64,000 nt of DNA from a virus: positions 1 through 64,000 of IMG/VR virus record IMGVR_UViG_3300034069_000341; one strand, 5' to 3'. Within the stretch, counting starts at the first letter, position 1. Every line of letters starts with the position of its first letter. Under the pieces are notes generated by a model that saw only the letters and a list, made by a program, of their open reading frames with translations, was not told the DNA's origin and searched no databases. This document shows, piece by piece, positions 14,401 to 48,087 of the stretch. The position numbers and the translations under genes were made by a program.

Positions 14401-16763
14401 TTGTGTGGCTGTATCAGAACGCCGTTAGGCCCGCCTTTACTGGAATCGGCAATGCTATATCTGGTGCCTGGAACAATGTTATCCGGCCAGTGTTTGGCTT
14501 CATTCACCGGGCAGTTGACGGCCTTGTCGGAGTGTTCCAGAATTCAGGTACCCACATTCGTAATGTGTGGACTAGTATTAGTAACGCTTTGCGCGCGGGC
14601 TATGTCTATATGAATAATCTGGTATTCAACCCGATGCGGCGCGCGGTGGGGTGGGTCGCAGATAGTTTCGCACAAGTTCGAGACCGAATTGGCGTTATCT
14701 GGAATAACCTTCGCGTGCGCCTGTATAATGGTTACGTGGCTATTAGTAACACAGCACTCAACCCCTTGCGTCGTGCAGTCTCCTGGGTCGGAGACCGTTT
14801 CGCTAGTGTTCGTGACCGAATCGGTATCATCTGGGGTAACCTCCGTGACTTGCTTCGCCGTGGTTACGAGGCGATCAATAACCAGGTTTTCCGGCCTCTT
14901 CATAATGCTCTAGGAGGTGTCCAGGATAGGTTCGCAACCGTCCGTGACCGTATCGCCTCTATTTGGGATAATATGCGGGACCACCTTCAGCGGGGCTGGG
15001 AGGCTATTAGTAATCGCGTGTTCACGCCCCTCCGTAATGGTGTCGCTCGGGTGCAAACTGCATTTGAGCGCGCTCAGGAAGGAATTGGCACCGCGTGGGA
15101 GCGCATCCGAGAGGCTGTTCGTCAGCCTGTCGCAGGCGTGGTCAACAACGTCATCAACCCGTTCATCGGCGGGTATAATGACTTGAACAATGCCTGGAGT
15201 GGCGACGACCTGGATCCGATCAAGGGATTCCACACTGGTGGTTACACTGGTCGCGGGTCTAAGTATCAGGCTGCGGGTATTGTCCACGCAGACGAGTACG
15301 TTGTGCGTAAGAAGGCACGTCGTAAGTTCGAGCGAGAGAATCCCGGCGTTCTGGATCACATCAATGCTACGGGTGAAATGCCCAAGAAGCAGCCGCGCAA
15401 GCACTCGGTGGATGGAATGTCCGCCGGTGTTCCGGGCGGACCCCGAGGCGGTATCTGGGGCCGAATTCAGCACGCTATGTCGCAGGCGGGACAGGTGACG
15501 TTCACCGGCTCCGCCCTCGGCGTGAATGTCAGTGACGCTGTGAAGGCTTGGCAGGGGCGCTCGGCGCTTCAGGTCAACGCTGGAAGCGGCGGGGGCCCCC
15601 GAATCTCGGCGGGCGCAGGCGGCGCAGGACCTTGGGGATACTACTCCGGGTCCAACCTGTTCCTGAACCCGCGTGGCCCTAGCTCCAAGAAGCAGAAGGT
15701 CGGCACGATGGTTCACGAGATGGGCCATGCTATGTCGCTGAACCACGCTGGCACTAACTCGGTTATGCACCCTATGATGAAGGGCGGCTGGTGGTCGCAG
15801 CCTGCGGACTGGGCTAAGATGGTCGAGGTCTTCGGTAAGCCTGGTGGCAAGGTCAAGACCTACTCCGCTTCGGAGGTTGGTCAGGACGGCGGCGGCAGTT
15901 GGATCGACCCGATCGGCTGGATCGTTGAGAAGTTCAATAAGATCATCGGCAAGACCCGCGAGAATGCGGCTAACTTGTTCGCGGGCAACACCTTTGCTAG
16001 TATGCCGCTGGGTCTGTTCGATCAGGCTGTGGAGAACCTGAAGAACTCCATCAAGGACAAGGTTGGCTCTTGGCTCAACCCGTTCGACGGTGGGGGCGGA
16101 GGTTCTAGCGATGACAAGAGTACTTCTGGTGCTAAGTCTCCGCGAGCCTGGAAGTCCACGGTTATCGAGGCGCTTGGCAAGGCGGGTCTTCCGAACAACG
16201 ATGCCTATGTGAACGCATGGATCGCGCAGATTGCCTCCGAGTCCGGCGGTAACCCGAGTGCTATTCAGCAGGTCAAGGACGTGAACAGCGGTGGTAATGA
16301 GGCCGCTGGCCTTGTCCAGGTGACCCCCGGAACGTTCGCGGCTCACCGAGACAAGTCGCTGCCGAATAACCGCCTTGACCCGCTTGCCTCTCTGGTCGCT
16401 GGCATGAACTATGCCAAGTCCAGGTATGGCAAGAACATGCTGTCCGTGATCGGCAAGGGCCACGGCTATTCGGAGGGTGGACGGGTTACCCCGTACAACC
16501 TGTTCGACAAGGGCGGGTTCCTCCGAAAGACCGGAGAGCCGCAGTTGATCCAGCACAAGAAGAGCCGACCTGATGCGGTCCTCACTGCTCAGCAGTGGAA
16601 GGACCAGCGGAAGATCGCTCAGGCGGCTGGAGAGCGCCTGACGGGCGTGAGCAAGGACAACATGGAGTTGCACGTCCACGCAAACGGTGTGGACGTTGAT
16701 GAGGTCGCTAGGCGCGGAGTCGAGGACTTTGCTTGGCACCTGAAGCACCAGATGGGAGGATAA
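11457..16763 (+). CDS. Tape measure protein with embedded zincin-type peptidase motif and lytic transglycosylase-like domain
   Basis: 1768 aa after chaperones; hydrophobic Gly/Ala/Val-rich middle; HEMGHAMSLNH at 15714-15746; AQIASESGGNP...GLVQVTPGTF about 16,200-16,340. Confidence 0.9.
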   Translation: MAGRQPPIATAWVAVTPETVGFRKKVEKDLQDLNTTASRTGSQAGTNWSKSFVDAFKKNKVRLSDTGLDQAEREYLAAQARMEKTTLAGAKKRTDAEKKYSDALEDSVKASKEFGPWSGEYKKSLDAVTDAQRRLNQVTKETAEEQEALQAEVEASSESLTKLRKEIDGIENAAGPAWAKGIRKNLHIAFTSVGEIADDAGREMGVRLSESFKDTIRKQNIGAAVGASLGRLSGARALMDFAEAAKDSALNADRLAVAAGNAGLRIGGLGLVAVGATGSILALSGGLGSMLSTALVLPGILAAVATGAVVFRVALSDISNVLPDVTEAYKGLGDIIKENFWERAAAPMRDAAFRLLPVLSAGLAEVSNQFGGWAVAISSVVGSAKGLQWIGDILENIGVMADIMGDGVGAFANGLLELTYVGSTYLPRLGEALSVLAYKFENFVQMNTENGNIFRWVENGITEFKNLGAVIAGTISIFGSLYEASRRAGGPSGFGFLRAGIDSVSNALKTAGWQDALTSLFSGAYEGLGSIGAGLVAVADGFRVISPALGTVFSLVGETLGVLLQGLGDFMSHPAVAEGLVNFFTSVKNAIADTIPSMELVAPAFKAIATMAGQLVEAVGGVMDAALNTFAPAFLTISEAAAPLIPILSDIVQNIIEGMGPAVNFVAGLLGDLLDFIVPLLGRLSEMEWLWKGLGTAISLVIIPLVAIAGPLMFLVGTFFRVLGVVRLVVGGFIKLASEFRNFGGAVKNTVSNSKTLTAALNGIKNAASKVGNFFKAIFKPAIDGVGKAFGFLKGHVVKLIEQFGGKGLLSVLGSVGKRFIGLLGPIGLVISIIWLLVDGVRYAWNNFEWFRDGVTGVWNWIRDAISNVVTWFIDTAMPALGTALTAVGGFFSGLWVNYVQPVWGWIQTTVGGFVNWFTLTAIPAVQNVITTLGNAFSWLYTSIVQPVFNGIQTAIDIALWPVRVLLGGLYLLIRDVIGPGFVWLYQNAVRPAFTGIGNAISGAWNNVIRPVFGFIHRAVDGLVGVFQNSGTHIRNVWTSISNALRAGYVYMNNLVFNPMRRAVGWVADSFAQVRDRIGVIWNNLRVRLYNGYVAISNTALNPLRRAVSWVGDRFASVRDRIGIIWGNLRDLLRRGYEAINNQVFRPLHNALGGVQDRFATVRDRIASIWDNMRDHLQRGWEAISNRVFTPLRNGVARVQTAFERAQEGIGTAWERIREAVRQPVAGVVNNVINPFIGGYNDLNNAWSGDDLDPIKGFHTGGYTGRGSKYQAAGIVHADEYVVRKKARRKFERENPGVLDHINATGEMPKKQPRKHSVDGMSAGVPGGPRGGIWGRIQHAMSQAGQVTFTGSALGVNVSDAVKAWQGRSALQVNAGSGGGPRISAGAGGAGPWGYYSGSNLFLNPRGPSSKKQKVGTMVHEMGHAMSLNHAGTNSVMHPMMKGGWWSQPADWAKMVEVFGKPGGKVKTYSASEVGQDGGGSWIDPIGWIVEKFNKIIGKTRENAANLFAGNTFASMPLGLFDQAVENLKNSIKDKVGSWLNPFDGGGGGSSDDKSTSGAKSPRAWKSTVIEALGKAGLPNNDAYVNAWIAQIASESGGNPSAIQQVKDVNSGGNEAAGLVQVTPGTFAAHRDKSLPNNRLDPLASLVAGMNYAKSRYGKNMLSVIGKGHGYSEGGRVTPYNLFDKGGFLRKTGEPQLIQHKKSRPDAVLTAQQWKDQRKIAQAAGERLTGVSKDNMELHVHANGVDVDEVARRGVEDFAWHLKHQMGG
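14484..15125 (+). repeat. In-frame about 132-nt (44-aa) tandem repeats inside tape measure (about 4-5 units)
   Basis: Units NP(M/L)RRAV.WV.D.FA.VRDRIG.IW.NLR..L..GY.AI.N..(F/L) at 14628, 14760, 14892, weaker flanking units. Confidence 0.8.
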
Positions 16764-16766
16764 CCT

Positions 16767-17633
16767 ATGGATAGGCACAGCCTACGTCGTGCGGAACTAT
16801 CGTGGGAGGGGAACACGCTGGTGTTCACCAACTATGAGGACCCGACTGCCCCTACCGCCGCGTACCTTACCACTCTTGACGGGTGGTACGGCGGGGTTGG
16901 TATTTCGGCAGAAGCGACGCAGCGCGCCGTCCATCATGGTCAGGTTGCGGCCAAGGGTCAGCGAACTGGACGTTCGCTGACCCTTGGCGCGCAGATGTAT
17001 TTTGAGCATGAGAGGGACCGAGACATTGCAGATCGCTTTGTCTCCGGCATCCTACAGGACGGCGATTTCGGCGAGTTGACTTACTCGGTAGACGGTGTAG
17101 AGGCTACGGCCTATGTACGCCTAGACGGTGAAGTCAAGCACGCTACTACAGGATATGACTACATTGAGTTGGAAGTTCCGCTCTTTGCACCTAATCCGTA
17201 CCTCTTCGGCAAGAAGAAGCGGATCACTATGCCCACTATCACCTCGGGCGCTGGCCTTGAATGGGATGGTGGGCTGTTCGCCGATGGAATTCTTGATTGG
17301 GGAGACTCAGCCCCTATTCCGGTCGCCGCGAACAACGGCAACGCGCCTTCGTGGATGACGTTCTCGGTGTCCGGTGAGATGGATTTCGGATTCGAGATTT
17401 CCATTGGCCGCAATCATATTGTCTGGCCGCATCACCTGAATTACAACAGAGGTGTTATAATTGATACAGGACGGGGACGAGTAACCCAGGGTGGAGTTGA
17501 TGTGACTCACATGTTGGAGTCGTGGGATTGGGCACCAATTCCGCCGTATTCCTCGGTGTCCCCAGTATTCAAGACTTTCACTCCGCACGCTTCAGGCTTT
17601 TGCCGCGCGGAGTGGAGCGACACTTACATCTAA
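16767..17633 (+). CDS. Distal tail protein (Dit-position minor tail protein)
   Basis: 288 aa, first gene after tape measure. Confidence 0.55.
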   Translation: MDRHSLRRAELSWEGNTLVFTNYEDPTAPTAAYLTTLDGWYGGVGISAEATQRAVHHGQVAAKGQRTGRSLTLGAQMYFEHERDRDIADRFVSGILQDGDFGELTYSVDGVEATAYVRLDGEVKHATTGYDYIELEVPLFAPNPYLFGKKKRITMPTITSGAGLEWDGGLFADGILDWGDSAPIPVAANNGNAPSWMTFSVSGEMDFGFEISIGRNHIVWPHHLNYNRGVIIDTGRGRVTQGGVDVTHMLESWDWAPIPPYSSVSPVFKTFTPHASGFCRAEWSDTYI

Positions 17634-18555: not shown

Positions 18556-20880
18556 ATGGTCGCTGTTGAGTGGGGTAAGCCCTCTGCAACAGTCCGAAAG
18601 GTCATCAAGAATTTGACGGCCCGCGTTAAGCCCCGGAGTGGCGTTTTCCCGCCGCTTCCGGGGCGTTCCGCGTCGGACGACGGTTGGCGTGCGTACATGA
18701 TCCGCACGGCTACCGGAGAGGTCGGTGCCCAGTTGCATCCGGTAGATGGATCATGGGAAATTCCCTTGAATGGGATCGAGTCTTGGAAGGTCAAGGTCAG
18801 CATCGAGGACCTTGAAGGTGTGGACCGCGCATGGTATACGGAGGGCATCGGAGGAGTGCTCATTACCTGGACGGTTGACGGGAAGGAAATCCCGTGGATC
18901 GCTGGCCCTGTTACTCAGTGGGACGCGGAGACTAATGGGTTTTTGGAGTATAGCGGCGGAGGAATCCGCGAGTGGTATGCCCGTCTTGTCATCGCAACTG
19001 ACCTGAGGGTCCGTAACAAGTCGCTGGGTCAGATCATGTGGCTCATTGCTAAGCAAGCGGATCTTAAGCCCGGTGGTGGGCCTCCGATCTACGACGCTTC
19101 CCCTGACCCTCAGGGTAGGGGGCACGAACGGAACTACATGGCTTGGGACCTGGCTAACGGCGGCATGGACAAGCGAATGTCTGAACTGTCGGCGGTCATT
19201 GACGGGCCAGACGTGATGTTCCGTCCTGAGTGGGCAGATAAGGCTCATACTAGCATTCGGTGGGGCTGCTACCACGGAACGTCCCAGTCGGCGAGGATTC
19301 AGTCCCCGACCGTTCATGTGTTCGATACTACGTCGGCCTACGGCTCGCTGAGTTCGGTAGAGGTTCGCACGTCCTCTTCGTTCCTGGTCTCCCGCGTGTG
19401 GGCGACCGGTGCCGGTTCTGGTGCTGGAACGATGATCGCCCGAGCTGAGGACCATTCGCTGGTCAGTGCCGGGTTCCCTTTCTATGAGACGGTCATTTCC
19501 GACACGTCCGCTACGGCGGACACCGAGGACACGACTTCTCTTGGAACGGATAAGCGAGTTCCTATCGCCCTTTCGGTGGGTAATGGAGTTCGTAACGCGC
19601 CGCTGAAGGCGACTGTTCGTATCCCTCTGGCTCTCCGAACGGGCGTGAAGAAGTGGCGACTGCATATCGAGAATAGGAATCCGTCAACCTCTAACGGAAG
19701 CCCCAGGACTACCCATGTAAAGTTCGGTGACCTGTACATGGGTAGCAACTGGAATAATGGCGGAATGGGCGAACCTAAGAAGGTCGTTGACATTATTGAT
19801 ATCGCCGCTGGCTCCTCGGAGACTGTTACCGAGTGGGTCGAGGAGAATATTGAGGAGAACATTGTCTTCTCTTTCTCTTACGAGACTTCCTCGGCGCCCC
19901 ATGCTTGCTACGGCGGCGGGTGGGTTCGTAAGGACGTTCGAGAAGAGGAGCGTCAGGGATTCAAGGGTCAGGTGAAGACCACGGATATTCCCTTCCACGT
20001 GTGGATCGAAGCCTACGTTGAAGAGAGCACCCCGGTGGTCGCTATGGTCGGGTCGTCCTCCGCAGCTGGTTATGGCGCGAACCTCCCGGTTTTCGACTCG
20101 CCTCTTTCCTGGTTCTGCCGAGAGCACAAGGCTATTCCCGTGCACTATGCTATCCCCGGTGACACGATGCTCAACTCTCTTGATCCGTCAAAGTACAAGT
20201 GGACTAAATGGAACGGCATGTCAAGGCCGGATAAGGTTTTGATGTACCTCGGTTCTAATGACATTTTTGGGTCAGCATCACTTGATGAACTGAAGTCGAG
20301 GGCTGAACGAATCATTGATATCATTGCGGATAAGATGAGCACTCAAATCTATATGGTCACTATCCCTCCGCGTACAGCACGACAGGCCGAAGAGGGTAAG
20401 CGCCGGGAGTACAATAAGTGGCTGAATAGCGGTGAGGTTCCCATTTCCAAGGGGGTTTACGATTTCGTGACTCCAATCTCGTCCGATGATGAGACTATCC
20501 GCAAGGAGTATGACTCGGACGGGACCCACCTGAACTCTAAGGGCTACAAGGTTCAGGCCCGCGCTCTGTGGGGTCTGGTTGAGGCGCAGTACGAGGACGG
20601 AAAGACGATCTACGGAATGTCTCAGTCCAAGGAACTCGCCGAGCGTGCCCTCGGTGAGTTGGGCAAGCGGCAGGACGGAGTTGACCAGATTACCGTAGAG
20701 GTGTCGTCGTTCGACCCGCTCTACGGTCTCGGACAGTGGTACGTGGGCGATACCGCCCGTGTGAAGGTCAAGGGGTGGCTCTCGGTCCCTGACGGCGTTC
20801 ACAATACCCGGATCATCAATGCCTCCGGGGATTTCAAGGATACAGTTAAGATCGACTTCCAGGAAGCGGTGATTGTGTGA
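18556..20880 (+). CDS. Minor tail protein with C-terminal SGNH/GDSL-type hydrolase domain
   Basis: 774 aa; blocks VAMVGSSSAAGYG, YLGSNDIFG, DSDGTHLNSKGY match SGNH blocks I, III, V. Confidence 0.65.
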   Translation: MVAVEWGKPSATVRKVIKNLTARVKPRSGVFPPLPGRSASDDGWRAYMIRTATGEVGAQLHPVDGSWEIPLNGIESWKVKVSIEDLEGVDRAWYTEGIGGVLITWTVDGKEIPWIAGPVTQWDAETNGFLEYSGGGIREWYARLVIATDLRVRNKSLGQIMWLIAKQADLKPGGGPPIYDASPDPQGRGHERNYMAWDLANGGMDKRMSELSAVIDGPDVMFRPEWADKAHTSIRWGCYHGTSQSARIQSPTVHVFDTTSAYGSLSSVEVRTSSSFLVSRVWATGAGSGAGTMIARAEDHSLVSAGFPFYETVISDTSATADTEDTTSLGTDKRVPIALSVGNGVRNAPLKATVRIPLALRTGVKKWRLHIENRNPSTSNGSPRTTHVKFGDLYMGSNWNNGGMGEPKKVVDIIDIAAGSSETVTEWVEENIEENIVFSFSYETSSAPHACYGGGWVRKDVREEERQGFKGQVKTTDIPFHVWIEAYVEESTPVVAMVGSSSAAGYGANLPVFDSPLSWFCREHKAIPVHYAIPGDTMLNSLDPSKYKWTKWNGMSRPDKVLMYLGSNDIFGSASLDELKSRAERIIDIIADKMSTQIYMVTIPPRTARQAEEGKRREYNKWLNSGEVPISKGVYDFVTPISSDDETIRKEYDSDGTHLNSKGYKVQARALWGLVEAQYEDGKTIYGMSQSKELAERALGELGKRQDGVDQITVEVSSFDPLYGLGQWYVGDTARVKVKGWLSVPDGVHNTRIINASGDFKDTVKIDFQEAVIV

Positions 20881-23600
20881 GTGCAGGATACACTAATCTG
20901 CGTACAGTGAGTTACCGCGATACGATTGCGGAACTCCTCGACAGGGCTAAACAGACGCATACCCGTGCTACGGGCGTGCAGGTGTTCTCCCCCGGTGACG
21001 GCATGGCCTATGAGGACGCGGAGGGGTTTATCAACCCCATCAGTCCAGCGCTTTTTGATGACGCTAAGAGTCAGATTGCTGAGGCCTCTGAGGCTCTAGT
21101 CGCCGCTGAGGCCGAGCTGGAAGCGGCCCAGGTCCGGATTGATGAGACTTCGGAGCTGTTGGGGCAGCTGGATAAGTTGGCCGGGAAGACCTCGGAGGAA
21201 GTCGCTGGTGTTGTGAAGGACATGGAGGCTGACCGGACGCGGCTCACTGCGGCTCAGGCTGATCTTGACGATCTGAAGCCCCGCCTCGGGGACGTGGAGA
21301 GCGTTGTCTCCGCCTCGGATGCGAAGGCGTCTCAGGCGGTGGCGGATGCGGCCCAGGCTTTGCAGGAGGCTCAGCAGGCACGGGAGTACGCGGAGGGACT
21401 GGACCCGTCTACGGGTGACGGGTCGTATTCGGAGTCGATGCAGGCCGCACAGCAAGCGGCTCGGGATGCGCTGGCGGCGATGGAGCGGGCCAACCAGGCG
21501 GTGACCAGTGCGTCAGGGAAGTCGTCGGTGCGGAATACCACCTCGCCCCCGCAGGGCGTGGGCACCGCTGTTGGTGACACGTGGTTCCAGTGGACTGCGT
21601 TCCCCGGTGGGACGGTTACGGGCCAGTGGACGTGGGATGGTGCGGCGTGGCGTCCGGTCACGCTGTCGCATCAGGTGTTGTCCTCACTGGACTTGGGCAA
21701 GGCCACGGTCGGCGAACTTGAGGGTGGTCGGATCAAGGCGCATTCGGTGGAGGCCCACAGGCTGACTATCGGCGTCGGGCAGAATGCAATCGCTGATCCG
21801 ATGTTCTCCTCAGTTGACTTGACTAATCGCCGAATGTCCGAATCGGTTGGCGCGTGGACCCAGAATCGTGCTGGCGCTACTACGTTTGTGGAAACCACGG
21901 GCACCGGCGCAGTGACCTTCCGATACTCGGGCACGCTGGCGAGCAGCGCCATTCCCACAGTCGCCGGTCAGAAGTGGAGGATTCAGGCTCAAGTGAATCC
22001 GGGCGGCGGTCAGGTCAGGACTAAAGTTCGATGGTTCAATGCTGCGGGAGTTTCCTCATATGTGGACGCGAGTGCTTATGTCACCGGCAATGCGGACACG
22101 AGCATCAGTACAATCTGGGAAGCCCCCGCAACAGCCGTGGGGTTCCTCGTTGACTTGTATAGTCCGGAGTCTTCAACCCCCCGAACTGTACGCGTCTATG
22201 CTGGTATTTCAGTTCAGTCCATGACTGGTTCGGTGCATATCGAGGACGGCGCTATTACGGCCTCCAAGGTTAATGCTCAGGAGGTTGCTGGCGCAATCGG
22301 CTCCTTTGTCAATGTCAAGGCGGAGAACGTCGAGGTCACCGAGTCTCTTGCGGCTAAGGTCTTCTCGGCGACTACTGCTAAGGTCGCTGAGCAGTTTGTC
22401 ACTGACCGTATGGTCATCGGCACTGGGACTGACGCTATGGTTCTTGAGGTACTGGGCAATGCTGTGGTGAACGACCTTAATCTTCGCGGCACTCTCCGGG
22501 GCCGGGACGCTATCCTGACGGGTACGGTTGATGTTGCTCAGTTGAACGTCACCGGGGATATGGCGGCGGAGATTGGCCGTTACATGAGGCTGGAGACTAA
22601 GAAGTTGATTGTCACCGAGGCAGCAGTTATGCAGCATGTGACTGCTATCGAGGGGATCATCACCCCGAAGATCACCGCCTCCGAGGCTAAGATGGGAAGT
22701 CTCATCGCGCAGAAGGCCAGTATCGCGGACATCGAGGGCGGGAACCTCACCCTGACCGGGCACTTCCGATCCGGCGCGGTCGGGAAGCCAGGAGTGATTA
22801 TCCCGCAGAACTACACTACTCAGGCGGGGATGGAGCAGTTGGGCGTCTGGCTTGCGCCAGACGGCAAGGCCCCTTCTTTGGGCTCTGAGTGGGGTCGTAC
22901 TGCGGGAATGTGGCTGGACAACGCTTCTAATGTCGTGGGGTCAACTAACTCCTCCCCGCTATTCATCCGGGGTCAGGCCGGGGCGGGCGTCCGCATCATG
23001 GGTGGCCTCTCCGTCGGGGCCGGCAACGGGGACGCGCTAATCACCTCAGCTGGCTCGGGAGACATGGCTATTAACGCACGAAGCGGGGACGTCAACTTCC
23101 TCGCGGGGAAGCAGTTTAATTCCTATAGCTCTGCTATGACAATCCTTACTGGCTACACCGGGGTAGTTCTACGAACCAACGGGTATCACACCTTGCAAAA
23201 CTCGGCTGGATCAGCGTACCCGAGAGGGGCTGGAAGCAATTCATACGTTAATCTGCTGATGGATTCGTCTAATGGGCGGGTATACAGGTCCACTTCAGCC
23301 CGGAAATATAAGGCAGATATCCAACCCTTCACTCCACCGCAGGAGTGGTTGGATATGCCGGTGTATTCTTATCGAGCCATTGAGGACCCAGTAACCGGCA
23401 GAATACAGCTTGGTTCCCTCGCGGATGAGGCCGAAGAGTATGGCGCAGGTGCTCTCGTCTCTTATGGCCCTGAAGGTGAAGTCGAAGATTACCATTACTC
23501 ACGAGAAGTAGTGGTCCTGCGGTATTTCCTCCGCGAGCACCGAGACAAGATCGCGGACCTGGAAGCCCGTATCGCAGAACTTGAATCGGCCCTTCTGTGA
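20877..23600 (+). CDS. Tail fibre with coiled-coil N-region and C-terminal intramolecular-chaperone (peptidase S74-like) domain
   Basis: 907 aa; Ala/Glu/Gln heptad-like region about 21,050-21,500; C-end ...YRSTSARKYKADIQPF...LADLEARIAELESALL typical of auto-cleaving chaperone domains. Confidence 0.6.
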   Translation: MSAGYTNLRTVSYRDTIAELLDRAKQTHTRATGVQVFSPGDGMAYEDAEGFINPISPALFDDAKSQIAEASEALVAAEAELEAAQVRIDETSELLGQLDKLAGKTSEEVAGVVKDMEADRTRLTAAQADLDDLKPRLGDVESVVSASDAKASQAVADAAQALQEAQQAREYAEGLDPSTGDGSYSESMQAAQQAARDALAAMERANQAVTSASGKSSVRNTTSPPQGVGTAVGDTWFQWTAFPGGTVTGQWTWDGAAWRPVTLSHQVLSSLDLGKATVGELEGGRIKAHSVEAHRLTIGVGQNAIADPMFSSVDLTNRRMSESVGAWTQNRAGATTFVETTGTGAVTFRYSGTLASSAIPTVAGQKWRIQAQVNPGGGQVRTKVRWFNAAGVSSYVDASAYVTGNADTSISTIWEAPATAVGFLVDLYSPESSTPRTVRVYAGISVQSMTGSVHIEDGAITASKVNAQEVAGAIGSFVNVKAENVEVTESLAAKVFSATTAKVAEQFVTDRMVIGTGTDAMVLEVLGNAVVNDLNLRGTLRGRDAILTGTVDVAQLNVTGDMAAEIGRYMRLETKKLIVTEAAVMQHVTAIEGIITPKITASEAKMGSLIAQKASIADIEGGNLTLTGHFRSGAVGKPGVIIPQNYTTQAGMEQLGVWLAPDGKAPSLGSEWGRTAGMWLDNASNVVGSTNSSPLFIRGQAGAGVRIMGGLSVGAGNGDALITSAGSGDMAINARSGDVNFLAGKQFNSYSSAMTILTGYTGVVLRTNGYHTLQNSAGSAYPRGAGSNSYVNLLMDSSNGRVYRSTSARKYKADIQPFTPPQEWLDMPVYSYRAIEDPVTGRIQLGSLADEAEEYGAGALVSYGPEGEVEDYHYSREVVVLRYFLREHRDKIADLEARIAELESALL

Positions 23601-23608
23601 TATAATGG
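23596..23608 (+). promoter_or_regulatory. Extended -10 promoter TGTGATATAATGG overlapping the fibre stop codon
   Basis: Identical 13-mer to 5751-5763. Confidence 0.55.
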
Positions 23609-23663
23609 TATTGCCGAACCGTCCTCGGCCATTATCGTAGGAGAGTGATCCCCTATCTCGTCT

Positions 23664-23701
23664 AGCGCCCCCATTGTCTTAGGACAGTGGGGGCGCTTTT
23701 C
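23664..23701 (+). terminator. Intrinsic terminator
   Basis: AGCGCCCCCATTGTC / GACAGTGGGGGCGCT arms (one G.U), then TTTT. Confidence 0.75.
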
Positions 23702-23712
23702 GTGATATAATG
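23701..23712 (+). promoter_or_regulatory. Extended -10 promoter GTGATATAATG
   Basis: Directly after terminator; 40 nt before 23751 gene. Confidence 0.5.
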
Positions 23713-23750: not shown

Positions 23751-24653
23751 ATGGCTTTCCCTTCGGGAGTAACCACTGCCACTATTTCTCTAGGAACAAT
23801 GTTCGACTTTCGCGGCAATGCTGTCGATAAGGTCACCGCTAAGGTCGAGGTGTTCCTCGGCGGAAATGCTACTAAGCTGAACTACCGGGGCACGGGTCAG
23901 ACTGTTGTCCCTTCAGTATTCACCGTGGAAGCGGTGGAGGGGATGGTCTCCTTCCAGTTGCCGCATGTCGATCAGCCCGGATTCTTTGCGGGGGACGGCA
24001 CTGAGGCTAAGTACTGGGCCTACATCATTTCCATTCAGGCTACGCCTCCAGGGTCAAAGGCCGTCAAGTGGGTCAAGCGACTTCAGCCCATCGTGGGGCA
24101 GGACTCCATTGATCTTGACAATGTTGTTGACGGTGAACTCACGTCGTTCGTCTCGACCCCGCAGGCTACTGTTACCTCGGTGAACGGGATGACAGGCGAC
24201 GTCTGGGTCTCCGGCGGTGGATCAGGTACACCTATCGACCTCTCCGAGTATGTCACTGAGGCTGAACTGGATGCGGCTATCCAGTCGGTGGACCTGTCGG
24301 TCGATACCACCGCAATCTACTCCCGAATCGATGAGGTGGAGTCGTCTATTCCGGACGTGAGCGCGTTCGTGACTCGGAACGAAATCCAGAATTATGCTCT
24401 TGCGGAGGATATTCCTGACACAAGCACGTTCGCGACCCGAAACGAGCTTCAGAATTATGCTCTCGCGGAGAGTATTCCGGATACGAGTAATCTGGCGACT
24501 AAGGACGAACTTCAGAACTACGCTCTTTCAGAGCACACGCACACTGACCTTGAGCAGCGCATCACAGCACTTGAAGGCGCCCCGTCCGGCGGGTCGGTTA
24601 CGCTGGTCGAGTCCCCGGCAGGGTCCGGGCTTTACGAGATTCAGGGGGTCTGA
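23751..24653 (+). CDS. Minor tail/fibre protein with 21-aa tandem repeats
   Basis: 300 aa; F(V/A)TRNE(I/L)QNYALAE(D/S)IPDTS(T/N) repeated; C-end HTHTDLEQRITALE...SPAGSGLYEIQGV. Confidence 0.55.
   Translation: MAFPSGVTTATISLGTMFDFRGNAVDKVTAKVEVFLGGNATKLNYRGTGQTVVPSVFTVEAVEGMVSFQLPHVDQPGFFAGDGTEAKYWAYIISIQATPPGSKAVKWVKRLQPIVGQDSIDLDNVVDGELTSFVSTPQATVTSVNGMTGDVWVSGGGSGTPIDLSEYVTEAELDAAIQSVDLSVDTTAIYSRIDEVESSIPDVSAFVTRNEIQNYALAEDIPDTSTFATRNELQNYALAESIPDTSNLATKDELQNYALSEHTHTDLEQRITALEGAPSGGSVTLVESPAGSGLYEIQGV
24366..24536 (+). repeat. 63-nt in-frame tandem repeat, about 2.7 copies
   Basis: Units start 24366, 24429, 24492. Confidence 0.85.
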
Positions 24654-24655
24654 GT

Positions 24656-26008
24656 ATGGTGAAGCTCATTGGAGTAGATGACGAAGGTCGAATCTCTGGT
24701 GACGGTGTTGCCGCCGTACAGATCGCCTCAGCAGCAGACCGATTGGCACTGGCGGCGAAACTCTCCGTGCCCAGGTTCAATCCGGAGCCTTCAACCGTAG
24801 CGGTCGATATCACAAGTTCCGCCGATGCCTCGGGGCAGGCGATCCAGGGGGGCATCGAGGTTAACGTCCATGCTCTGCGGTCTCAGCTGGGCGCATACCC
24901 GAATCCGGCGATGTGGCGCATCGAATATGGTCTGGCACCGCTTGAAATTATGGTTGACGGGTCTACGGGCGCGGAGTTCGAGATTCGTGGGGTCGGTCTC
25001 AACGCGCTGGCATCCCGCACGGTGGTATGGGTGGATGATCGACCACTGCCCATAGTCGAGACGCCAGGTGCGGGGACGAATATCGCATGGTTCTTCCGGG
25101 TGAAGTTCGCGGACCCCGGACGGCACCGGGTGCGTATCCATCAGCAAGGGGTCGCGGTTGAGGGTATCCGAACGCGGGATGCGAACACAACACTCTCACC
25201 GGCGGTGCGTCGCCCCGCAGTCGGGGCGGTGACGGACAGTTTCGGCGGCGCTACTGATTACGTGGAGGCAGCGGAAACGCCGTTGCAGGTGATCGAGGAA
25301 CGGCTGAACGTGAATCTGCTTCGCTCCACAATCGGTGGTTCCGGGTACCTGGCGGATGGGTCTTGGGTTCGGTTCGCCCACCCGGACCGGCTCGCCCCGT
25401 GGTCATCCGCTGAGCTTGACGCGGTGCTCTTCTTCGGGTCCATCAACGACCCGGCTGAAGCGACCGAGGACGAGTACAAGGTCGCAGCGACTCAGACCTG
25501 GGACGCATATGCGGACCTTCTTCCGGGGAAGCCGCTGGTCGTGTTCGGTATGCAGCCGTCGTCGGCGTATCGAACGGTGGAGGGCCCCGATGTGGCCCGA
25601 CTCAATCACTGGCTGTATGAAGCGGCGCAAGCGCACCCGGCGGTGACTGCGTTCGTGGATATGATCGGCACCGCTCGGGCCTTCTCTGGTCAGGAGCAAC
25701 CAGCCTGGGAGTCTGCTGCGACTTATCAGGCAGGGGATATCGTGCGGTTCCAGGGCGCTCATTACGCCTGCGTTACCCCGATGCAGTACGCGCCTCCGTC
25801 CACCGCCGCGTTCTGGCGTCAGGTCTCGTGGGTGTTCACGGGCACGGGGAAGCGCGGGGAGCCGACACAGGACGGCAACAGGGACGCTTTGCTCGGGGAG
25901 GACGGGACACACCCTACCGCTCTGGGTGCGCACGTATTCGGGCAGCAGATGTCACGATCTTTGGTGGAGGCGTTGTCTTCTCCTTTGGAGTTCACCTATG
26001 TTAACTAA
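24656..26008 (+). CDS. Tail-associated SGNH-type esterase with CBM5/12-like C-terminal motif
   Basis: 450 aa; shared N-terminal module MVKLIGVDDEGRISG...; VTDSFGG, FFGSINDP, GEDGTHPT blocks; AWESAATYQAGDIVRFQGAHYAC...FWRQV. Confidence 0.55.
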   Translation: MVKLIGVDDEGRISGDGVAAVQIASAADRLALAAKLSVPRFNPEPSTVAVDITSSADASGQAIQGGIEVNVHALRSQLGAYPNPAMWRIEYGLAPLEIMVDGSTGAEFEIRGVGLNALASRTVVWVDDRPLPIVETPGAGTNIAWFFRVKFADPGRHRVRIHQQGVAVEGIRTRDANTTLSPAVRRPAVGAVTDSFGGATDYVEAAETPLQVIEERLNVNLLRSTIGGSGYLADGSWVRFAHPDRLAPWSSAELDAVLFFGSINDPAEATEDEYKVAATQTWDAYADLLPGKPLVVFGMQPSSAYRTVEGPDVARLNHWLYEAAQAHPAVTAFVDMIGTARAFSGQEQPAWESAATYQAGDIVRFQGAHYACVTPMQYAPPSTAAFWRQVSWVFTGTGKRGEPTQDGNRDALLGEDGTHPTALGAHVFGQQMSRSLVEALSSPLEFTYVN

Positions 26009-26013
26009 GGGGT

Positions 26014-27165
26014 ATGATGACTCGGCTTCTCGGCGTCTCTGACTCGGGGGTTCTCGTGGGCGGGGCGGCCACTGCCGTGCAGGCGGCGGTCGCCCCACTG
26101 CTGAACTCAGAGTTCACCTACCCACAGGCATACGCCGCCGCCCCGAACGGGAACGATGATACAGACGTTCTGGCGGATGCGGCGGCTAAGGGCTTGGCCC
26201 TGCGTCCAGGGGTCTACCGGGCGACCCGACCGATTGACGTGTCCAATGCTGTCCTGGTCGGTGTCCCCCGCAAGACAGTCATCCACGTGACCAGCGAGAG
26301 CCTGCTCTCGACGTCCCGAGCGTGGGAGTCCCTGCACGTCTCTGGTATCAACTTTGAGGCGCGTAGCGACCTAGTACGGAACTTCCTGCGGTGTACTTAC
26401 ACAGGTATAGATGTAGCTAGCAAGAAGGTGATATCTGACTGCGAGTTTCGTGGCCACACTCGCGCCGCCGTATCCTGCGCGCAATATGACAATCCTTACG
26501 TCCTAGTAGACCGTTGTCAATTCCATGGAGCAAACATGACCACCTCATCGGGGGTTGCCTTGGCGGGGAACATGGACGGGTCCCGAATTCGAGACTGCGA
26601 CTTCCTGATCGGGAAGCATGGAGTTATTGTGGGTCAGGCCGGTATCACTATGGAAATTACCGGCTGCGATTTCGTTCACTTTGGACCCGGAAATAATCGA
26701 ACTAACGTTTGGGCCATTCCCCATGATAACTACGTCAACGCAGGCCACGGATTCCAGATCACCGACAACAAGTTCGGTAACGAGAATCTGGATGCGAGCG
26801 ACTACCGCGTTGTCTTCGCCGACAAGGGCGCGCCATTCGACGCCCAGGCATCCATCCCAGGTGACTGGGACATGTCCACTGCGGTGTCCGCCGGGTACGC
26901 TATCCAGGGGCAGATCACCGGGAATCGGTTCTGTGGTGGTCCCGAGGGGATGCGCTCTCCGGTCATCAGCCACACCCCACGTCTGTGGGCCTATACGATC
27001 CGGGACAACCCGGCTGTGGGGACTCCAGGGCCGTATGCGGTCGAGTTCGCCCCTGGTGCCCTGCCCACGCGGCAGACAAACACCCGCGTGCAGGCGGGGT
27101 CTACCATCCCGGGGAACACATCTCAGGCGGCGACGAATGCCGCCGAGTACATGATACTAGATTAA
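26014..27165 (+). CDS. Tail-associated right-handed beta-helix (pectate-lyase-fold) depolymerase-like protein
   Basis: 383 aa; shared N-terminal module; PbH1-like rungs ISDCEFRGH, VDRCQFHGAN, IRDCDFLIGKHG, ITGCDFVHFG, ITDNKFGN, ITGNRFCGG. Confidence 0.55.
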   Translation: MMTRLLGVSDSGVLVGGAATAVQAAVAPLLNSEFTYPQAYAAAPNGNDDTDVLADAAAKGLALRPGVYRATRPIDVSNAVLVGVPRKTVIHVTSESLLSTSRAWESLHVSGINFEARSDLVRNFLRCTYTGIDVASKKVISDCEFRGHTRAAVSCAQYDNPYVLVDRCQFHGANMTTSSGVALAGNMDGSRIRDCDFLIGKHGVIVGQAGITMEITGCDFVHFGPGNNRTNVWAIPHDNYVNAGHGFQITDNKFGNENLDASDYRVVFADKGAPFDAQASIPGDWDMSTAVSAGYAIQGQITGNRFCGGPEGMRSPVISHTPRLWAYTIRDNPAVGTPGPYAVEFAPGALPTRQTNTRVQAGSTIPGNTSQAATNAAEYMILD

Positions 27166-27175
27166 GAGGATTTTT

Positions 27176-27331
27176 ATGCCTAAGTTAATTGGAGTCGATG
27201 ACCAGGGCCACTTGGGCGAGCAAGCTACAGCCGCTATCGCTCAGGCGGGGTTCGCCTCAGTCGGGCACACGCACCAAATCTCGGGCGTTGAGGACCCCGC
27301 CGGGTCTGGTACTTATAGGATGGTGAACTGA
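27176..27331 (+). CDS. 51-aa mini tail-module protein (N-terminal adaptor motif only)
   Basis: AAGAGGA RBS, ATG 27176; MPKLIGVDDQGHLGEQATAAIAQAG...HTHQISGVEDPAGSGTYRMVN; hand-translated. Confidence 0.45.
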   Translation: MPKLIGVDDQGHLGEQATAAIAQAGFASVGHTHQISGVEDPAGSGTYRMVN

Positions 27332-27332
27332 T

Positions 27333-28067
27333 ATGGTACGTTTTATCGCTGTTGATGACAACGGCAAGATCACTGGCACCGTGGCTAAGCCCGCTATTGA
27401 GTCTGTGGCAAAGCCTCTGGTGGACGCTGCCGAGGCTAGGCTCACTCCGAAGCCTATTCTGAAGACTGCCGCTGTCCAGGCGGCGAAGGCAAATGGTGCT
27501 GCCGACGGCCCTACGAATCTCATGATGCGTATGATTGTGAACGTGAAGCCGGTGGCTACCCGTTGGCGGGTGCGAATCCGCAACGCTGGCGCGACAGCCC
27601 AGGGATCGGGGACGCTGAGTTCGGTGGGTATCTATCATGGCCCGACTGCTACCAACCCCGCACTGGTTGCGGCGAACCCCATCCTCCGAGCGGTCCCCGA
27701 ATTCACCATCACCGGCGCCACCGAATACGTCTCGCCCTGGGTGAGCGGAACCACATTTCCCCTCGGGGGTAGCAAGGACTACTCGATCAGCTTCAACTTC
27801 ACCGGGGCGACCACTACGGTGATGGGGGACGCAACCCTGCCCATCTACACCGCTCCTGGTACTAACAATGGCGGGGCTACGTGGGTGACCCCCACCCTGG
27901 CGACCCGCGTGCCTCTAGCCGTCACCGTGGAGTATGAGGCCGAGTACGCGCAGGGGGCTGTCGCTCAGGGAGGCATCATGCAGGTGACCCGCGAGGAGTA
28001 CCTTGCCGCCCGTACGGCGGGAACCCTCGACTCCGGGGTCTTCTACGCCGTCACGGAGTCTGTCTGA
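27333..28067 (+). CDS. Minor tail protein with shared N-terminal module
   Basis: 244 aa; MVRFIAVDDNGKITG...; C-end QVTREEYLAARTAGTLDSGVFYAVTE. Confidence 0.5.
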   Translation: MVRFIAVDDNGKITGTVAKPAIESVAKPLVDAAEARLTPKPILKTAAVQAAKANGAADGPTNLMMRMIVNVKPVATRWRVRIRNAGATAQGSGTLSSVGIYHGPTATNPALVAANPILRAVPEFTITGATEYVSPWVSGTTFPLGGSKDYSISFNFTGATTTVMGDATLPIYTAPGTNNGGATWVTPTLATRVPLAVTVEYEAEYAQGAVAQGGIMQVTREEYLAARTAGTLDSGVFYAVTESV

Positions 28068-29023
28068 TGGGTGTCGAGATCAACGGACGGAAGACCACGG
28101 GTCTCTACCTCGGTAAGAGGCCCGTGGAGATGCTATACGGGGGTACGCAGCCTGTCTGGCCTCCGCAGGGAGCACGACCTTCTGCGCCCCAGGGAACACT
28201 GCAACTCGACGGTCCTTTGATGTTCGACGCTGACTTCGGTAAGAACGGACTCGGCGACTACAAGAACCTTCACCCCATCAACGGTCCTGTTGGCTCAATC
28301 GAGCAGGGACTAGACGTAGGGACTTGTCTTGACCCAATTGACCAATCCCGAACGGTGTTCTGGGCAGACAATGGTCGCGGTCTCCATTCCGGAAACGGTC
28401 ACCCCCGAGCGCAGGCGGAAGGGCCGTTCTTCATCAAGCCGAAGAAGTGGGACAATACTGACTCTCGGTATGCCTGGTACACCGAGACACTGGTACCCAC
28501 CAAGTATGCCATGAAGTCGGGCGCGGAGTGGACTGGTATCGGCTCGGGGGCGCATGGAGCACCTTGGACCTTAGGTTCGGCCACAGGGCTGATGCTGACC
28601 TACGCGAACGGGAAGCACATTCTGCGAATGCACGACACCCCCTCATGGCTCGGTCCCAATGTCGAGTACCCCCTCGGCCAGTGGGTCGGGCTGCTGATCT
28701 ACACAAAGTACGAGCACGCCGTTGACGGCGGGTTCATTGAAATGGCGATCAACCGTACTAGGGACATGCGTACTGGGTGGGAGCAAGTCCCCATCGGCGG
28801 AGTCAAGCGATACTCTACCGACGTCATCAGCGACGACGAGGGCAACGGCTGGTGGAAGGACCCCTCTATCGCTCCCGCAAGCCCCCGCATTGGTCTTTAC
28901 GGATCCTATAAGGCTCGAATGTACTATGCCCACCACCGCATCGGACGCGCGCCTAAGGACGTGCTTCCCACCGGGTGGGACGGAAAGATTTCCGGCGAGA
29001 CTTTCGTAGAGGCCGCGAAGTAA
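28067..29023 (+). CDS. Tail-associated protein, possible polysaccharide lyase/lectin-fold enzyme
   Basis: 318 aa, ATGA overlap with previous gene; aromatic/Gly-rich beta-type composition; functional call is tentative. Confidence 0.35.
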   Translation: MGVEINGRKTTGLYLGKRPVEMLYGGTQPVWPPQGARPSAPQGTLQLDGPLMFDADFGKNGLGDYKNLHPINGPVGSIEQGLDVGTCLDPIDQSRTVFWADNGRGLHSGNGHPRAQAEGPFFIKPKKWDNTDSRYAWYTETLVPTKYAMKSGAEWTGIGSGAHGAPWTLGSATGLMLTYANGKHILRMHDTPSWLGPNVEYPLGQWVGLLIYTKYEHAVDGGFIEMAINRTRDMRTGWEQVPIGGVKRYSTDVISDDEGNGWWKDPSIAPASPRIGLYGSYKARMYYAHHRIGRAPKDVLPTGWDGKISGETFVEAAK

Positions 29024-29029
29024 ATCCCC

Positions 29030-29082
29030 ATATCACAAAGCGCCTCACTAAGCCAAATGCTTAGTGAGGCGCTTTGTGATAT
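29030..29082. terminator. 24-bp perfect inverted repeat (terminator hairpin whose right arm contains the next promoter)
   Basis: ATATCACAAAGCGCCTCACTAAGC-CAAAT-GCTTAGTGAGGCGCTTTGTGATAT. Confidence 0.8.
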
Positions 29083-29086
29083 AATA
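29075..29086 (+). promoter_or_regulatory. Extended -10 promoter TGTGATATAATA
   Basis: Late-type motif before lysis cassette. Confidence 0.55.
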
Positions 29087-29124
29087 GGTGAGACCGAATA
29101 TTGTCTTATCAGGAGGCTTACATA

Positions 29125-30243: not shown

Positions 30244-30867
30244 TCAGGTGGCAACGGGCTCACGGTATTCAGGGTCCCGATACGGATGATACTTCGATTC
30301 TCCGGCCTTACGCGCGGCGATAGCGTCGTCCAGGTTGGCGAAGTAACCTAGGTGGGCGGTGGTCCCCCCGACCGTAATCTGTGCTTTCCACTTTTCGTAT
30401 CGCTTTTCCCAGTAGACGCCGATATGCCCGGAGGTGTTATTGGCTTGAAGATTCGGTCGGTTTTGCTGATTTCCTGCATGGCTCACCTGGCGCAGGTGAG
30501 CCGGGTTGCAGCACGCCTTCGAGATGCAAGCAATGTGGTCGACCTGGAGGCCTTCCACTAGCGGCCCAACAAAAACCGAGAATACCAGGCGGTGGACATA
30601 CCACATCTTTCCTTGGAAGCTCACCACACCATACTCTTTCCAGTTGAGCGCTCGCGTCCAAATCCAGCAGCCGCTATCGGGATCGACTTCGACCTGCTCG
30701 ATGATCCATCTCCCCATCTCTTCGGCGCTCATATTTCGCTTCCTAATGGGGCGTAAGGGCTGTAGGGCGCGCCCCTTCCACTGCTGTTCGTAGTGACCTT
30801 TACACAGCCCCTTGGCATATAGGACGCGATCGCACTGAGGTCCAACGCAGGATTTCTTCTCACCCAT
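30244..30867 (-). CDS. HNH (HNH_3-type) homing endonuclease with AP2-like DNA-binding domain
   Basis: 207 aa; VDHIACISKACCNPAHLRQVSHAGN; C-end GVYWEKRYEKWKAQITVGGTTAHLGYFANLDDAIAARK; only - strand gene in the + arm. Confidence 0.8.
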   Translation of the reverse strand: MGEKKSCVGPQCDRVLYAKGLCKGHYEQQWKGRALQPLRPIRKRNMSAEEMGRWIIEQVEVDPDSGCWIWTRALNWKEYGVVSFQGKMWYVHRLVFSVFVGPLVEGLQVDHIACISKACCNPAHLRQVSHAGNQQNRPNLQANNTSGHIGVYWEKRYEKWKAQITVGGTTAHLGYFANLDDAIAARKAGESKYHPYRDPEYREPVAT

Positions 30868-47839: not shown

Positions 47840-47860
47840 GGTGCCGCCTTTCCTTGCAAG

Positions 47861-47936
47861 TCCCCCTGCCCGGACTCGAACCGGGATCACATTTATTTTG
47901 AGTAAATGCCCTCGTGCCTAATTGGGGTACAGGGGG
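47861..47936 (-). tRNA. tRNA, anticodon loop CUCAAAA (anticodon CAA, Leu-type) but short 5-nt variable region
   Basis: Hand fold: acceptor CCCCCUG/CAGGGGG, A73, anticodon stem AUUUA/UAAAU, T-arm CCCGG-UUCGAGU-CCGGG. Confidence 0.75.
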
Positions 47937-48014: not shown

Positions 48015-48016
48015 CG

Positions 48017-48087
48017 TCCCCTTCCCCGGACTCGAACCGGGACTGTCACGGTTATTCCCGCTGCCTCTGCCGTTGGGCTAGAAGGGG
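48017..48087 (-). tRNA. tRNA-like gene, 71 nt, anticodon loop appears 6 nt (GAAUAA)
   Basis: Acceptor CCCCUUC/GAAGGGG, A73, T-arm CCCGG-UUCGAGU-CCGGG perfect; anticodon arm GCGG/CCGU. Confidence 0.45.

Follow-up and report, generated by a model that had tools for sequence, protein, structure and literature searches.

Four consecutive tail genes of a virus begin with the same short peptide and continue into different bodies: what does this peptide do, and to what might it attach? The genes lie in a stretch of 64,000 nucleotides (nt), positions 1 to 64,000 of IMG/VR virus record IMGVR_UViG_3300034069_000341, referred to below as the window. They encode gp450, gp383, a stub of 51 amino acids (aa) and gp244, here called carriers, and stand between the genes of a fibre protein, gp300, and of a protein without the peptide, gp318 (Table 1). 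The four open reading frames (ORFs) are as described in an initial annotation of this DNA, in which the peptide was taken for an adaptor docking interchangeable enzymes onto one site of the baseplate, after the logic of branched tailspike systems. The evidence collected here points to another site. We consider it rather probable, from the sequences compared, that the segment 23751-29023 is a self-contained, exchangeable host-recognition cassette, in which a hairpin at the C-terminus of gp300 would act as socket and the N-terminal peptide of the carriers as plug.

The shared N-terminal peptide

A search of the 1720 six-frame segments of the window with the pattern M-x-[KR]-[LF]-[ILV]-[GA]-[VI]-[DSN]-D-x-G-x-[ILV] gives exactly four matches, and each coincides with the start codon of one of the consecutive tail genes (24656, 26017, 27176 and 27333). 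The N-termini read MVKLIGVDDEGRISG (24656), M(M)TRLLGVSDSGVLVG (26014/26017), MPKLIGVDDQGHLGE (27176) and MVRFIAVDDNGKITG (27333); the second ATG of gp383, at 26017, brings this protein into register with the other carriers, and an independent gene call agrees. The back-translated DNA pattern is found three times in the window and never in 100 shuffles. When hidden Markov models were built with one copy left out, the omitted copy was in each case the top non-training match, with E = 1.6e-6, 0.021, 1e-5 and 8e-4 (the second value belonging to gp383, whose peptide is the most divergent), the runner-up having E of 0.4 or above. Since every copy is recovered in this way, the N-terminal likeness is not an effect of composition, and the similarity from which the initial annotation started is better than chance. 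Its extent had been overestimated: the sharing is real, but only about 14-16 aa, not 25, are common to all four copies, identity reaching 24-45 aa being confined to sub-families.

Over 14 codons, pairs of copies within the window are 45-62% identical at the nucleotide level, with 2-4 synonymous differences per pair. D9 and G11 never vary, and V7 hardly does, in 21 distinct DNA instances taken from relatives, where Gly and Val are each encoded by all four of their codons. Conservation thus acts on the peptide, which is under selection, and reflects neither a recent DNA duplication nor composition.

The profile search of the N-terminus proposed in the initial annotation was carried out with HMMER on 1.84 billion representative proteins. 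It gave 16 matches with E < 1e-3; nine are true carriers, all of which match at residues 1-33, and the remaining seven are repeat proteins. The carriers include close homologues of the four proteins of the window as well as proteins with new bodies. The peptide is thus an exclusively N-terminal element, and it has no features of a signal peptide. A word-indexed protein search with the N-terminal profile, a method blind to a 14-aa module, returned the stub itself only, and the five matches of the exact degenerate DNA pattern in IMG/VR are all due to chance, none lying at the start of a tail gene.

Exchange of bodies and variation of the array

In related metagenomic phages the peptide is the N-terminus of at least eight unrelated bodies. 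These are a candidate SGNH domain joined to CBM5/12, a probable beta-helix of 383 aa, a pectate-lyase-like spike, gp244, DUF4874 joined to DUF4832 (P0004), Spherulin4, SGNH proteins of 408, 419 and 420 aa (the latter two sizes corresponding to P0006 and P0011) and CBM4_9-type proteins of 284-285 aa (P0005, P0008). The end of one gene and the first 25 codons of the next are 94-97% identical between genomes at the nucleotide level; homology then stops, at codon 25, and the bodies beyond are unrelated. As an example, positions 27324-27413 of the window are 96.7% identical to the related locus L010, and identity with L011 stops at 27406; beyond that point gp244 in the window and the CBM4_9 protein in the relatives have nothing in common.

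Longer contigs, obtained via gp300 homologues, allow comparison of whole arrays, in which the number of carriers varies from one to four. A single carrier is found in L016 (gp300, gp244, gp318) and in L022-L025 (gp300-like, gp248, gp318), two in L021 (gp300-like, peptide-bearing 408-aa SGNH protein, gp245, gp318-like), three in L017-L020 (gp300, peptide-bearing Spherulin4 enzyme, peptide-bearing 419-aa SGNH protein, gp244, gp318) and four in the window (gp300, gp450, gp383, stub, gp244, gp318). In every array read through both ends the carriers lie between the gp300 and gp318 genes, and the latter follows the last carrier wherever that end could be read. In all five arrays read from gp300 to gp318 (window, L016, L017, L021, L022) gp244 is the last carrier; in L010 and L012 its position is taken by a 284-285-aa protein with the same peptide and another body. 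Stop and start codons of neighbouring cassette genes are 1-2 nt apart or overlap throughout. Of the branched-adaptor logic first suggested for this locus, a short adaptor on exchangeable bodies therefore stands, being restricted to N-termini, shared by at least eight bodies, followed by a sharp break of homology and present on one to four proteins; a T4gp10-like branching domain, on the other hand, was not found.

A frameshift within a G run (..CCGGGGGGGTGAGG..) breaks the Spherulin4 enzyme with the peptide in L017 (10960-13243) into two ORFs, of 95 and 684 aa; L018-L020 are identical here, and contigs from four samples show the same split. The split gene could be a pseudogene, a case of slippage or phase variation, or an assembly artefact.

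The C-terminal end of gp300 and the phage backbone

The gp300 stalk has three 21-aa repeats and a HTH..LEQRITALE segment, with fibre repeats featuring H-x-H segments. Its N-terminal domain is homologous to the N-termini of annotated Arthrobacter phage minor tail proteins, and the AlphaFold2 model, confident only for residues 1-130 (predicted local distance difference test, pLDDT, 75-91 in this domain), finds tail fibre and minor tail proteins of actinophages when searched against BFVD with Foldseek. The domain recurs at the N-terminus of such proteins. No Pfam family was found for gp300 at E <= 0.01, and only unrelated matches below cut-off at E <= 1.

The gp300 family, of 64 members, is built from an N-domain, a stalk of variable length and a near-invariant end, LVESPAGSGLYEIQG. 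Distant members have 31-47% identity in the N-domain and 12-28% in the stalk, against 87-100% in the last 15 aa; between genomes this end differs by 2-7 synonymous codons. In the six-frame translation of the window, [ED][SD]P.GSG.[YF] is matched only twice, where gp300 and the stub end, both 1-2 nt before a carrier gene, and a gp300-type end is found 1-2 nt ahead of a carrier gene in six out of six cases. Those gp300 relatives that do not have the C-terminal motif carry a distal domain of their own in one chain (P0050, P0052, P0058 and gp50 of Arthrobacter phage Pureglobe5). Relatives with socket and plug fused in a single chain were sought among the gp300 homologues and none was found, the longer ones merely having no socket.

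Comparison with distant backbones suggests which parts travel together. In L022, Dit, gp303 (the protein encoded next to it), the Tal-like protein and gp300 are 39%, 41%, 56% and 42% identical to those of the window, against 84% for both gp244 and gp318. In L021, Dit, gp303, Tal and the 907-aa fibre find no match by tblastn in the region from tape measure protein to lysin; gp300 is 37% and gp244 70% identical, the gp300 end is 100% identical and the peptide is intact on two genes. gp244 is thus 70-84% identical across backbones which are 0-56% identical. The gp300 N-domain, which we presume to be an anchor, appears to track the backbone, while the distal parts do not. The binding partner of the peptide must be conserved wherever the peptide is, and therefore in L021 only the cassette qualifies. 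Within the cassette, conservation comparable to that of the peptide is found at the gp300 end: this is our main argument for a plug and socket, and it makes the invariant last 15 aa of gp300 a likelier docking site than the baseplate assumed in the initial annotation, as L021, with its unrelated backbone, shares only the cassette.

A deletion scar retaining both proposed connectors

The stub is no designed member of the set; it is the scar of an in-frame microhomology deletion in a full-length tailspike gene. Up to 27296 the window is 88.5% identical to L014, where the gene continues to at least 185 aa in total, with the peptide, HTHQISGVEGLDDAL and then the start of a pectate-lyase-like beta-helix. 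From 27286 on, it aligns at 94-96% with the last 46 nt of the large enzymes of L010 and L011, and the L017 enzyme has the same protein end, ..FVEDPAGSGTYRMVN. The 5' and 3' homologies to full-length genes overlap, the junction lying at the microhomology CGT[T/G]GAGG. Of the original protein, 40 residues remain at the N-terminus and 13 at the C-terminus, so that plug and socket both survive. If these elements act as we suggest, the stub documents the loss of a receptor-binding protein (RBP) by microhomology deletion with both connectors retained. An analogous case is Klebsiella phage KpV767, where a truncated secondary RBP of 69 aa keeps only the peptide (Latka et al. 2019, PMC6872550).

A further scar, out of frame, is found in L009 (1318-1413) directly 3' of a peptide-bearing SGNH gene, with MYSPIGVDNNGT in one frame and ..APEYELVESPAGSGLYTIQQKE in the next. 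It looks like a second, independent deletion from plug to socket.

Proposed assembly and alternative explanations

In the assembly that we propose, gp300 would form a trimeric stalk, anchored by its N-terminal beta-sandwich on the tail tip of a particular phage backbone, and its invariant C-terminal hairpin would be a universal socket. The plug (about 14 aa, M-x-K/R-L/F-I-G/A-V-D-D-x-G-x-I/L), predicted to fold as a hairpin and a short helix, would mount each downstream protein on this socket. gp244 would be the commonest core member, and esterases, beta-helix enzymes and glycosidase-like proteins would be accessory ones, gained and lost through recombination or deletion at plug and socket sequences. 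Large enzymes with a second copy of the socket at their end (..VEDPAGSGTYRMVN) could hand the site to the next protein, and the stub would be one of these socket-ended enzymes, its body deleted. Carriers may branch, chain or compete for one site.

Several observations weigh against this proposal. Plugs outnumber sockets, four to two in the window and two to one in L021, and simple one-to-one docking therefore cannot hold. In L012 one carrier gene is preceded by an intergenic hairpin, not by a socket-bearing gene. Plug and socket are both nearly invariant, which leaves no signal of co-variation, and structure prediction is of little help: the gp300 C-terminus (LVESPAGSGLYEI) is predicted as a beta-hairpin at low confidence (pLDDT about 55), and in the single-sequence model of the stub (pLDDT 62) plug and socket make no contact. 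The gp300 end also resembles a widespread C-terminal motif of "phage tail tip" proteins, PF24243, and could be simply the fold in which this fibre ends. That carriers dock physically, on which socket, as trimers, in what proportions and within the virion is inferred from sequence. The last of these points bears also on the location of the cassette, which in the more distant, 66-67% G+C relatives L021 (9049-16570) and L022 (8893-13459) lies between holin-like genes and an amidase lysin; in the window, by contrast, it is upstream of the holin-like genes. Its position inside the lysis region of these relatives makes a role outside the virion conceivable.

The resemblance to PF24243 and the excess of plugs would both suit a peptide with a docking partner beyond the cassette, on the baseplate or tail tip (Dit, gp303, Tal or the 907-aa fibre), gp300 being an independent fibre, and characterised RBP systems do mostly dock on baseplate or adaptor proteins (PMC6872550). 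We nevertheless regard this as unlikely, given that L021 carries the peptide on two genes with no tblastn counterpart of any of these four proteins, that L022 retains it although its backbone proteins are only 39-56% identical to those of the window, and that among elements of peptide size only the gp300 C-terminus equals the plug in conservation. Slightly less is to be said for conserved gene ends serving mainly as recombination joints for the exchange of bodies, with no specific docking role. Junctions 94-97% identical between genomes with unrelated flanking bodies, and deletions ending in these very sequences (the stub and the L009 scar), are what such joints would produce; but exchange at these points is expected of functional connectors anyway, paralogous copies are too dissimilar for homologous recombination (45-62% over 42 nt), invariant residues are encoded by every synonymous codon, and the protein sequence of the gp300 end stays the same through up to seven synonymous changes.

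We attach a similarly small probability to the carriers being soluble enzymes, degrading envelope or exopolysaccharide after release at lysis, with an N-terminus for oligomerisation, folding or export. The gene order of L021 and L022, with the cassette between holin-like membrane proteins and an amidase lysin, speaks in favour, as do the esterases known in actinophage lysis cassettes, such as LysB of mycobacteriophages. Against it stand several features: the N-domain of gp300 is that of proteins annotated as minor tail or tail fibre proteins, its fibre repeats contain H-x-H, in relatives of the stub the peptide runs straight into the fibre-type HTHQISGVEGLDDAL, and two relatives of the carriers end in the PF24243 tail tip domain. 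The peptide is also devoid of signal-peptide features. As to an N-terminal likeness arising by chance or as a by-product of GC-rich composition, its probability is negligible: no point supports it, even if the Ala-rich stretch past residue 15 is low in information, and it is contradicted by four out of four matches at start codons, their absence from shuffles, significant leave-one-out E values and carriers matching from residue 1.

Features of the region

Table 1. Position of the main features in the window, and loci at which a second candidate connector pair was read.
Feature	Position (strand)	Length	Remarks
Terminase	1891-3462		Genome of siphovirus type
Portal	3472-5043		
Tape measure protein	11457-16763	1768 aa	
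Dit	16767-17633		Followed by gp303 (303 aa)
Tal-like protein	18556-20880	774 aa	Own GDSL domain
Large fibre	20877-23600	907 aa	Directly before the region of the four peptide-bearing genes
Upstream boundary	23597-23711 (+)		Two exact GTGATATAAT motifs, at 23597 and 23702
GC-rich hairpin and T-run	~23666-23700		Between the two upstream GTGATATAAT motifs
gp300	23751-24653 (+)	300 aa	N-terminal beta-sandwich (~1-130), helical stalk; no enzymatic domain
gp300 C-terminal connector	24597-24650 (+)		VTLVESPAGSGLYEIQGV; proposed socket
gp450	24656-26008 (+)	450 aa	Putative docking peptide 24656-24727, then candidate SGNH-type esterase and CBM5/12
gp383	26017-27165 (+)	382/383 aa	Alternative start 26014; peptide 26017-26088, then probable right-handed beta-helix
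Stub	27176-27331 (+)	51 aa	5' part 27176-27296: putative docking peptide and HTHQISGVE
Stub, 3' part	27286-27331 (+)		Connector-like end EDPAGSGTYRMVN
gp244	27333-28067 (+)	244 aa	Peptide 27333-27404; commonest carrier; body of unassigned fold
gp318	28067-29023 (+)	318 aa	Last cassette gene; no docking peptide
Downstream boundary	29033-29085 (+)		Perfect 21-bp inverted repeat 29033-29079, overlapping GTGATATAAT at 29076-29085
Second pair, window	28000-28160		gp244 end and gp318 start
Second pair, L010	2001-3772		
Second pair, L012	762-2566		
Second pair, L021	12735-13916		
Second pair, L040	7686-10193		Unrelated low-GC IMG/VR contig
Second pair, L042	5549-7975		Unrelated low-GC IMG/VR contig

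The bodies of the four carriers correspond only in part to the functions first assigned to them. In gp450, residues 350-387 match PF02839 (CBM_5_12) with 31.5 bits, above the cut-off of 26.2, and this stretch also matches the CBM of chitin deacetylases in the PDB. The esterase part of the assignment is less firm: Lipase_GDSL_2 scores 24.9 bits, under its cut-off of 32.9, although the blocks TDS(FG), GSIND and DGTH are legible in the translation. Homologues of the gp450 body (residues 107-441) occur, without the peptide, in Gordonia and other phages. For gp383, described as a beta-helix depolymerase-like protein, the match to PF13229 (Beta_helix) is weak (E = 6e-4, 19.9 bits against a cut-off of 25.9), and phrog_2234, a tail spike family, is matched with E = 5e-4; no PDB sequence match was obtained, and a search of IMG/VR for the locus of this protein found nothing. 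Nothing shows gp244 to be fibre-like, as had been proposed, and lyase activity, likewise attributed to the cargo, is shown for no member. In the alignment of the gp244 family, residues 1-45 are nearly invariant.

The boundary elements of the cassette were identified by reading the sequence and by motif count. The exact motif GTGATATAAT, which resembles an extended -10 element (TGnTATAAT), occurs at 1060, 5752, 23597, 23702 and 29076, on the + strand of the structural arm only; with up to one mismatch there are 11 matches, against 1.3 expected. The element at 29023-29100 recurs once in L010 and twice in L012. A scan of the region for consensus promoters and terminators did no better than on shuffles. 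We take the boundary elements to be putative promoters and terminators, and copies of GTGATATAAT and hairpins bracketing the gp300-gp318 block suggest a transcription unit of its own.

gp318 and a possible second connector pair

gp318 has a conserved N-terminus of another type, MGVEINGRK..LG..PV.MLYGG..VWPP. No Pfam or PHROG match was found for it, and an alignment search gave nothing in IMG/VR and one 2.8-kb locus in metagenomes of the Joint Genome Institute (JGI). The preceding protein, gp244, ends in a sequence which by eye is like the tail tip motif (..EEYLAA..LDSGVFYAVTE); the 26-residue C-terminal profile PF24243 (Phage_tail_C) matches neither gp244 nor gp300 of the window at E <= 1. Among relatives, it scores 36.9 bits in gp356 of L021 and 22.7 bits in P0005, the cut-off being 23.7. 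Proteins with a PF24243-like end (..EY.AL...D...[LFT]Y.[IV]T[ED]) are followed by a gene with a hairpin-repeat N-terminus, M..I.G.K....LG..PV.MLYGG..VWP, in every case with a readable next gene (eight distinct loci plus duplicates), the second gene starting 0-25 nt after the end of the first. Among these loci are the two unrelated low-GC contigs L040 and L042 (..LTQTEYDALPSKDANTLYFIKE, then MIKLGEINISSVKLGDSNISKVYQGETLIFGG). L021 also has a 35-aa ORF consisting solely of the hairpin-repeat N-terminus.

A doubtful extension of the proposed assembly would be a tail fibre of separately encoded segments joined via two orthogonal plug-and-socket pairs, with enzymes branching at repeated sockets. 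In the first pair, the C-terminal ..VESPAGSGLYEI hairpin would receive the N-terminal M-x-K-L-I-G-V-D-D-x-G; in the second, the PF24243-like tail tip motif would receive the N-terminal hairpin repeat G.K.V..LYGG..VW. If so, the tail tip domain of many Gram-positive phages would be not a tip but a widely used socket, which receives the product of the next gene.

Genome context and host

After the cassette come holin-like genes, a minus-strand HNH gene and the lysin. The same sequence is present in Logan assembly SRR23972078 and in a 69-kb JGI contig. A Megablast search with 23751-29023 matched none of 50,697 phage records, so that no cultured phage is close in DNA, and tblastn of gp244 found no near-identical phage DNA either. 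At the protein level the best matches come from Arthrobacter phages and from Rothia phage Spartoi, whose Tal is 40% identical; no cultured phage is closer by this protein, and Spartoi lacks both plug and socket. Because of these relatives and of a G+C content of 57%, the host is probably one of the oral Micrococcaceae, such as Rothia. An alignment search with gp300 in GTDB genomes and IMG/VR yielded distant N-domain relatives only, none with plug or socket, and hence no host genome was identified.

Residues 496-671 of the Tal-like protein are a GDSL/SGNH domain (Lipase_GDSL_2, 47 bits, above cut-off); with that of gp450, two esterases per particle may be possible. Counterparts of the 907-aa fibre in relatives are highly variable in length (1119, 1312 and 1344 aa). 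The gene at 30244-30867 (-), between holin-like genes and lysin in an otherwise plus-strand late region, is HNH_3 according to the Pfam annotation of an identical gene in L001. At 48016-48087 (-) ARAGORN places a tRNA-like gene whose 2-nt "anticodon" is undetermined, adjoining a normal tRNA-Leu(CAA) at 47860-47936.

Significance and comparison with known systems

What is known of branched or multi-enzyme RBP systems that use short docking peptides comes almost exclusively from phages of Klebsiella, E. coli and Salmonella, where they now guide plug-and-play engineering of host range. Our literature search on docking-peptide systems returned Gram-negative cases only (Klebsiella, Acinetobacter, E. 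coli) and none in actinobacteriophages. If our proposal is correct, the cassette would provide a minimal connector (about 14 plus about 18 aa) working naturally across unrelated phage backbones, a way to recognise exchangeable host-recognition modules in uncultured actinophages, and a catalogue of surface-glycan-active enzymes (esterases, beta-helix, Spherulin4-like and DUF4832-like) for hosts of the oral Micrococcaceae type.

The closest parallels are the anchor-branch systems of Klebsiella and E. coli podoviruses, KP32 gp37/gp38 and G7C gp66/gp63.1 (Latka et al. 2019, PMC6872550). Their secondary RBPs carry a conserved N-terminal docking peptide of 7-29 aa, constant while bodies swap, and a T4gp10-like branching domain is their hallmark; the docking peptide has reportedly been validated (PMC13352976). 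As in these phages, adjacent genes encode differing enzymatic bodies (in the window CBM_5_12 with a candidate SGNH domain, a weak beta-helix match and an unassigned body), secondary proteins begin with a short conserved peptide, and the primary protein, here gp300, would have a backbone-specific N-terminal anchor; the stub recalls the 69-aa remnant of KpV767. There are also differences. A T4gp10-like domain was sought and not detected: the 907-aa fibre, like gp300, has no Pfam family at E <= 0.01, eight other tail proteins give only GDSL/SGNH, CBM_5_12 and Beta_helix in Pfam, gp300, the 907-aa fibre, gp450 and gp383 have no such sequence match in the PDB, and the gp300 model, confident for residues 1-130, finds only generic beta-sandwiches in a Foldseek search of the PDB, none T4gp10- or BppU-like. 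The proposed socket is instead an 18-aa C-terminal hairpin ending a stalk, the peptides are not related in sequence, as many as four carriers occur, some with sockets repeated at their ends, and the phage would be a siphovirus of a Gram-positive actinobacterial host.

In K1-5, K1E and SP6 a small adaptor bears two tailspikes through N-terminal peptides of 7 and 11 residues (PMC6872550). There too a non-enzymatic adaptor bears alternative, anchor-less enzymes via very short peptides; the adaptor of these phages, which is T4gp10-like, is mounted straight on the tail of a podovirus, while the fibre described here would combine an anchor, a helical stalk and a terminal hairpin.

Further analogies come from other tail types. 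In the T5-like siphoviruses DT57C and DT571-2, LtfA and LtfB form a branched lateral fibre, in which a second receptor-recognising protein is attached to the first; the arrangement of two receptor proteins on a siphovirus fibre is alike, the proteins are unrelated and the hosts Gram-negative, and we know of no short terminal plug-and-socket pair in these phages. In lactococcal phage TP901-1, BppU (about 300 aa, with an N-domain on the tail tip, a helical linker and a C-terminal holder) bears BppL trimers by their N-termini. Here too a siphovirus of a Gram-positive host combines an adaptor of this size with separately encoded RBPs; however, no sequence or family relation is detectable, the holder is a C-terminal domain and not an 18-aa end, and there is no array of enzymes. 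The long tail fibre of T4, with gp34, gp35, gp36 and gp37 end to end and encoded by consecutive genes, is likewise made of separately encoded segments joined at their termini, though in a myovirus, from unrelated proteins and with segments which are fixed, not interchangeable. Judging by these analogies, the cassette most likely represents a known adaptor logic realised with different parts, in an actinobacterial phage of siphovirus type.

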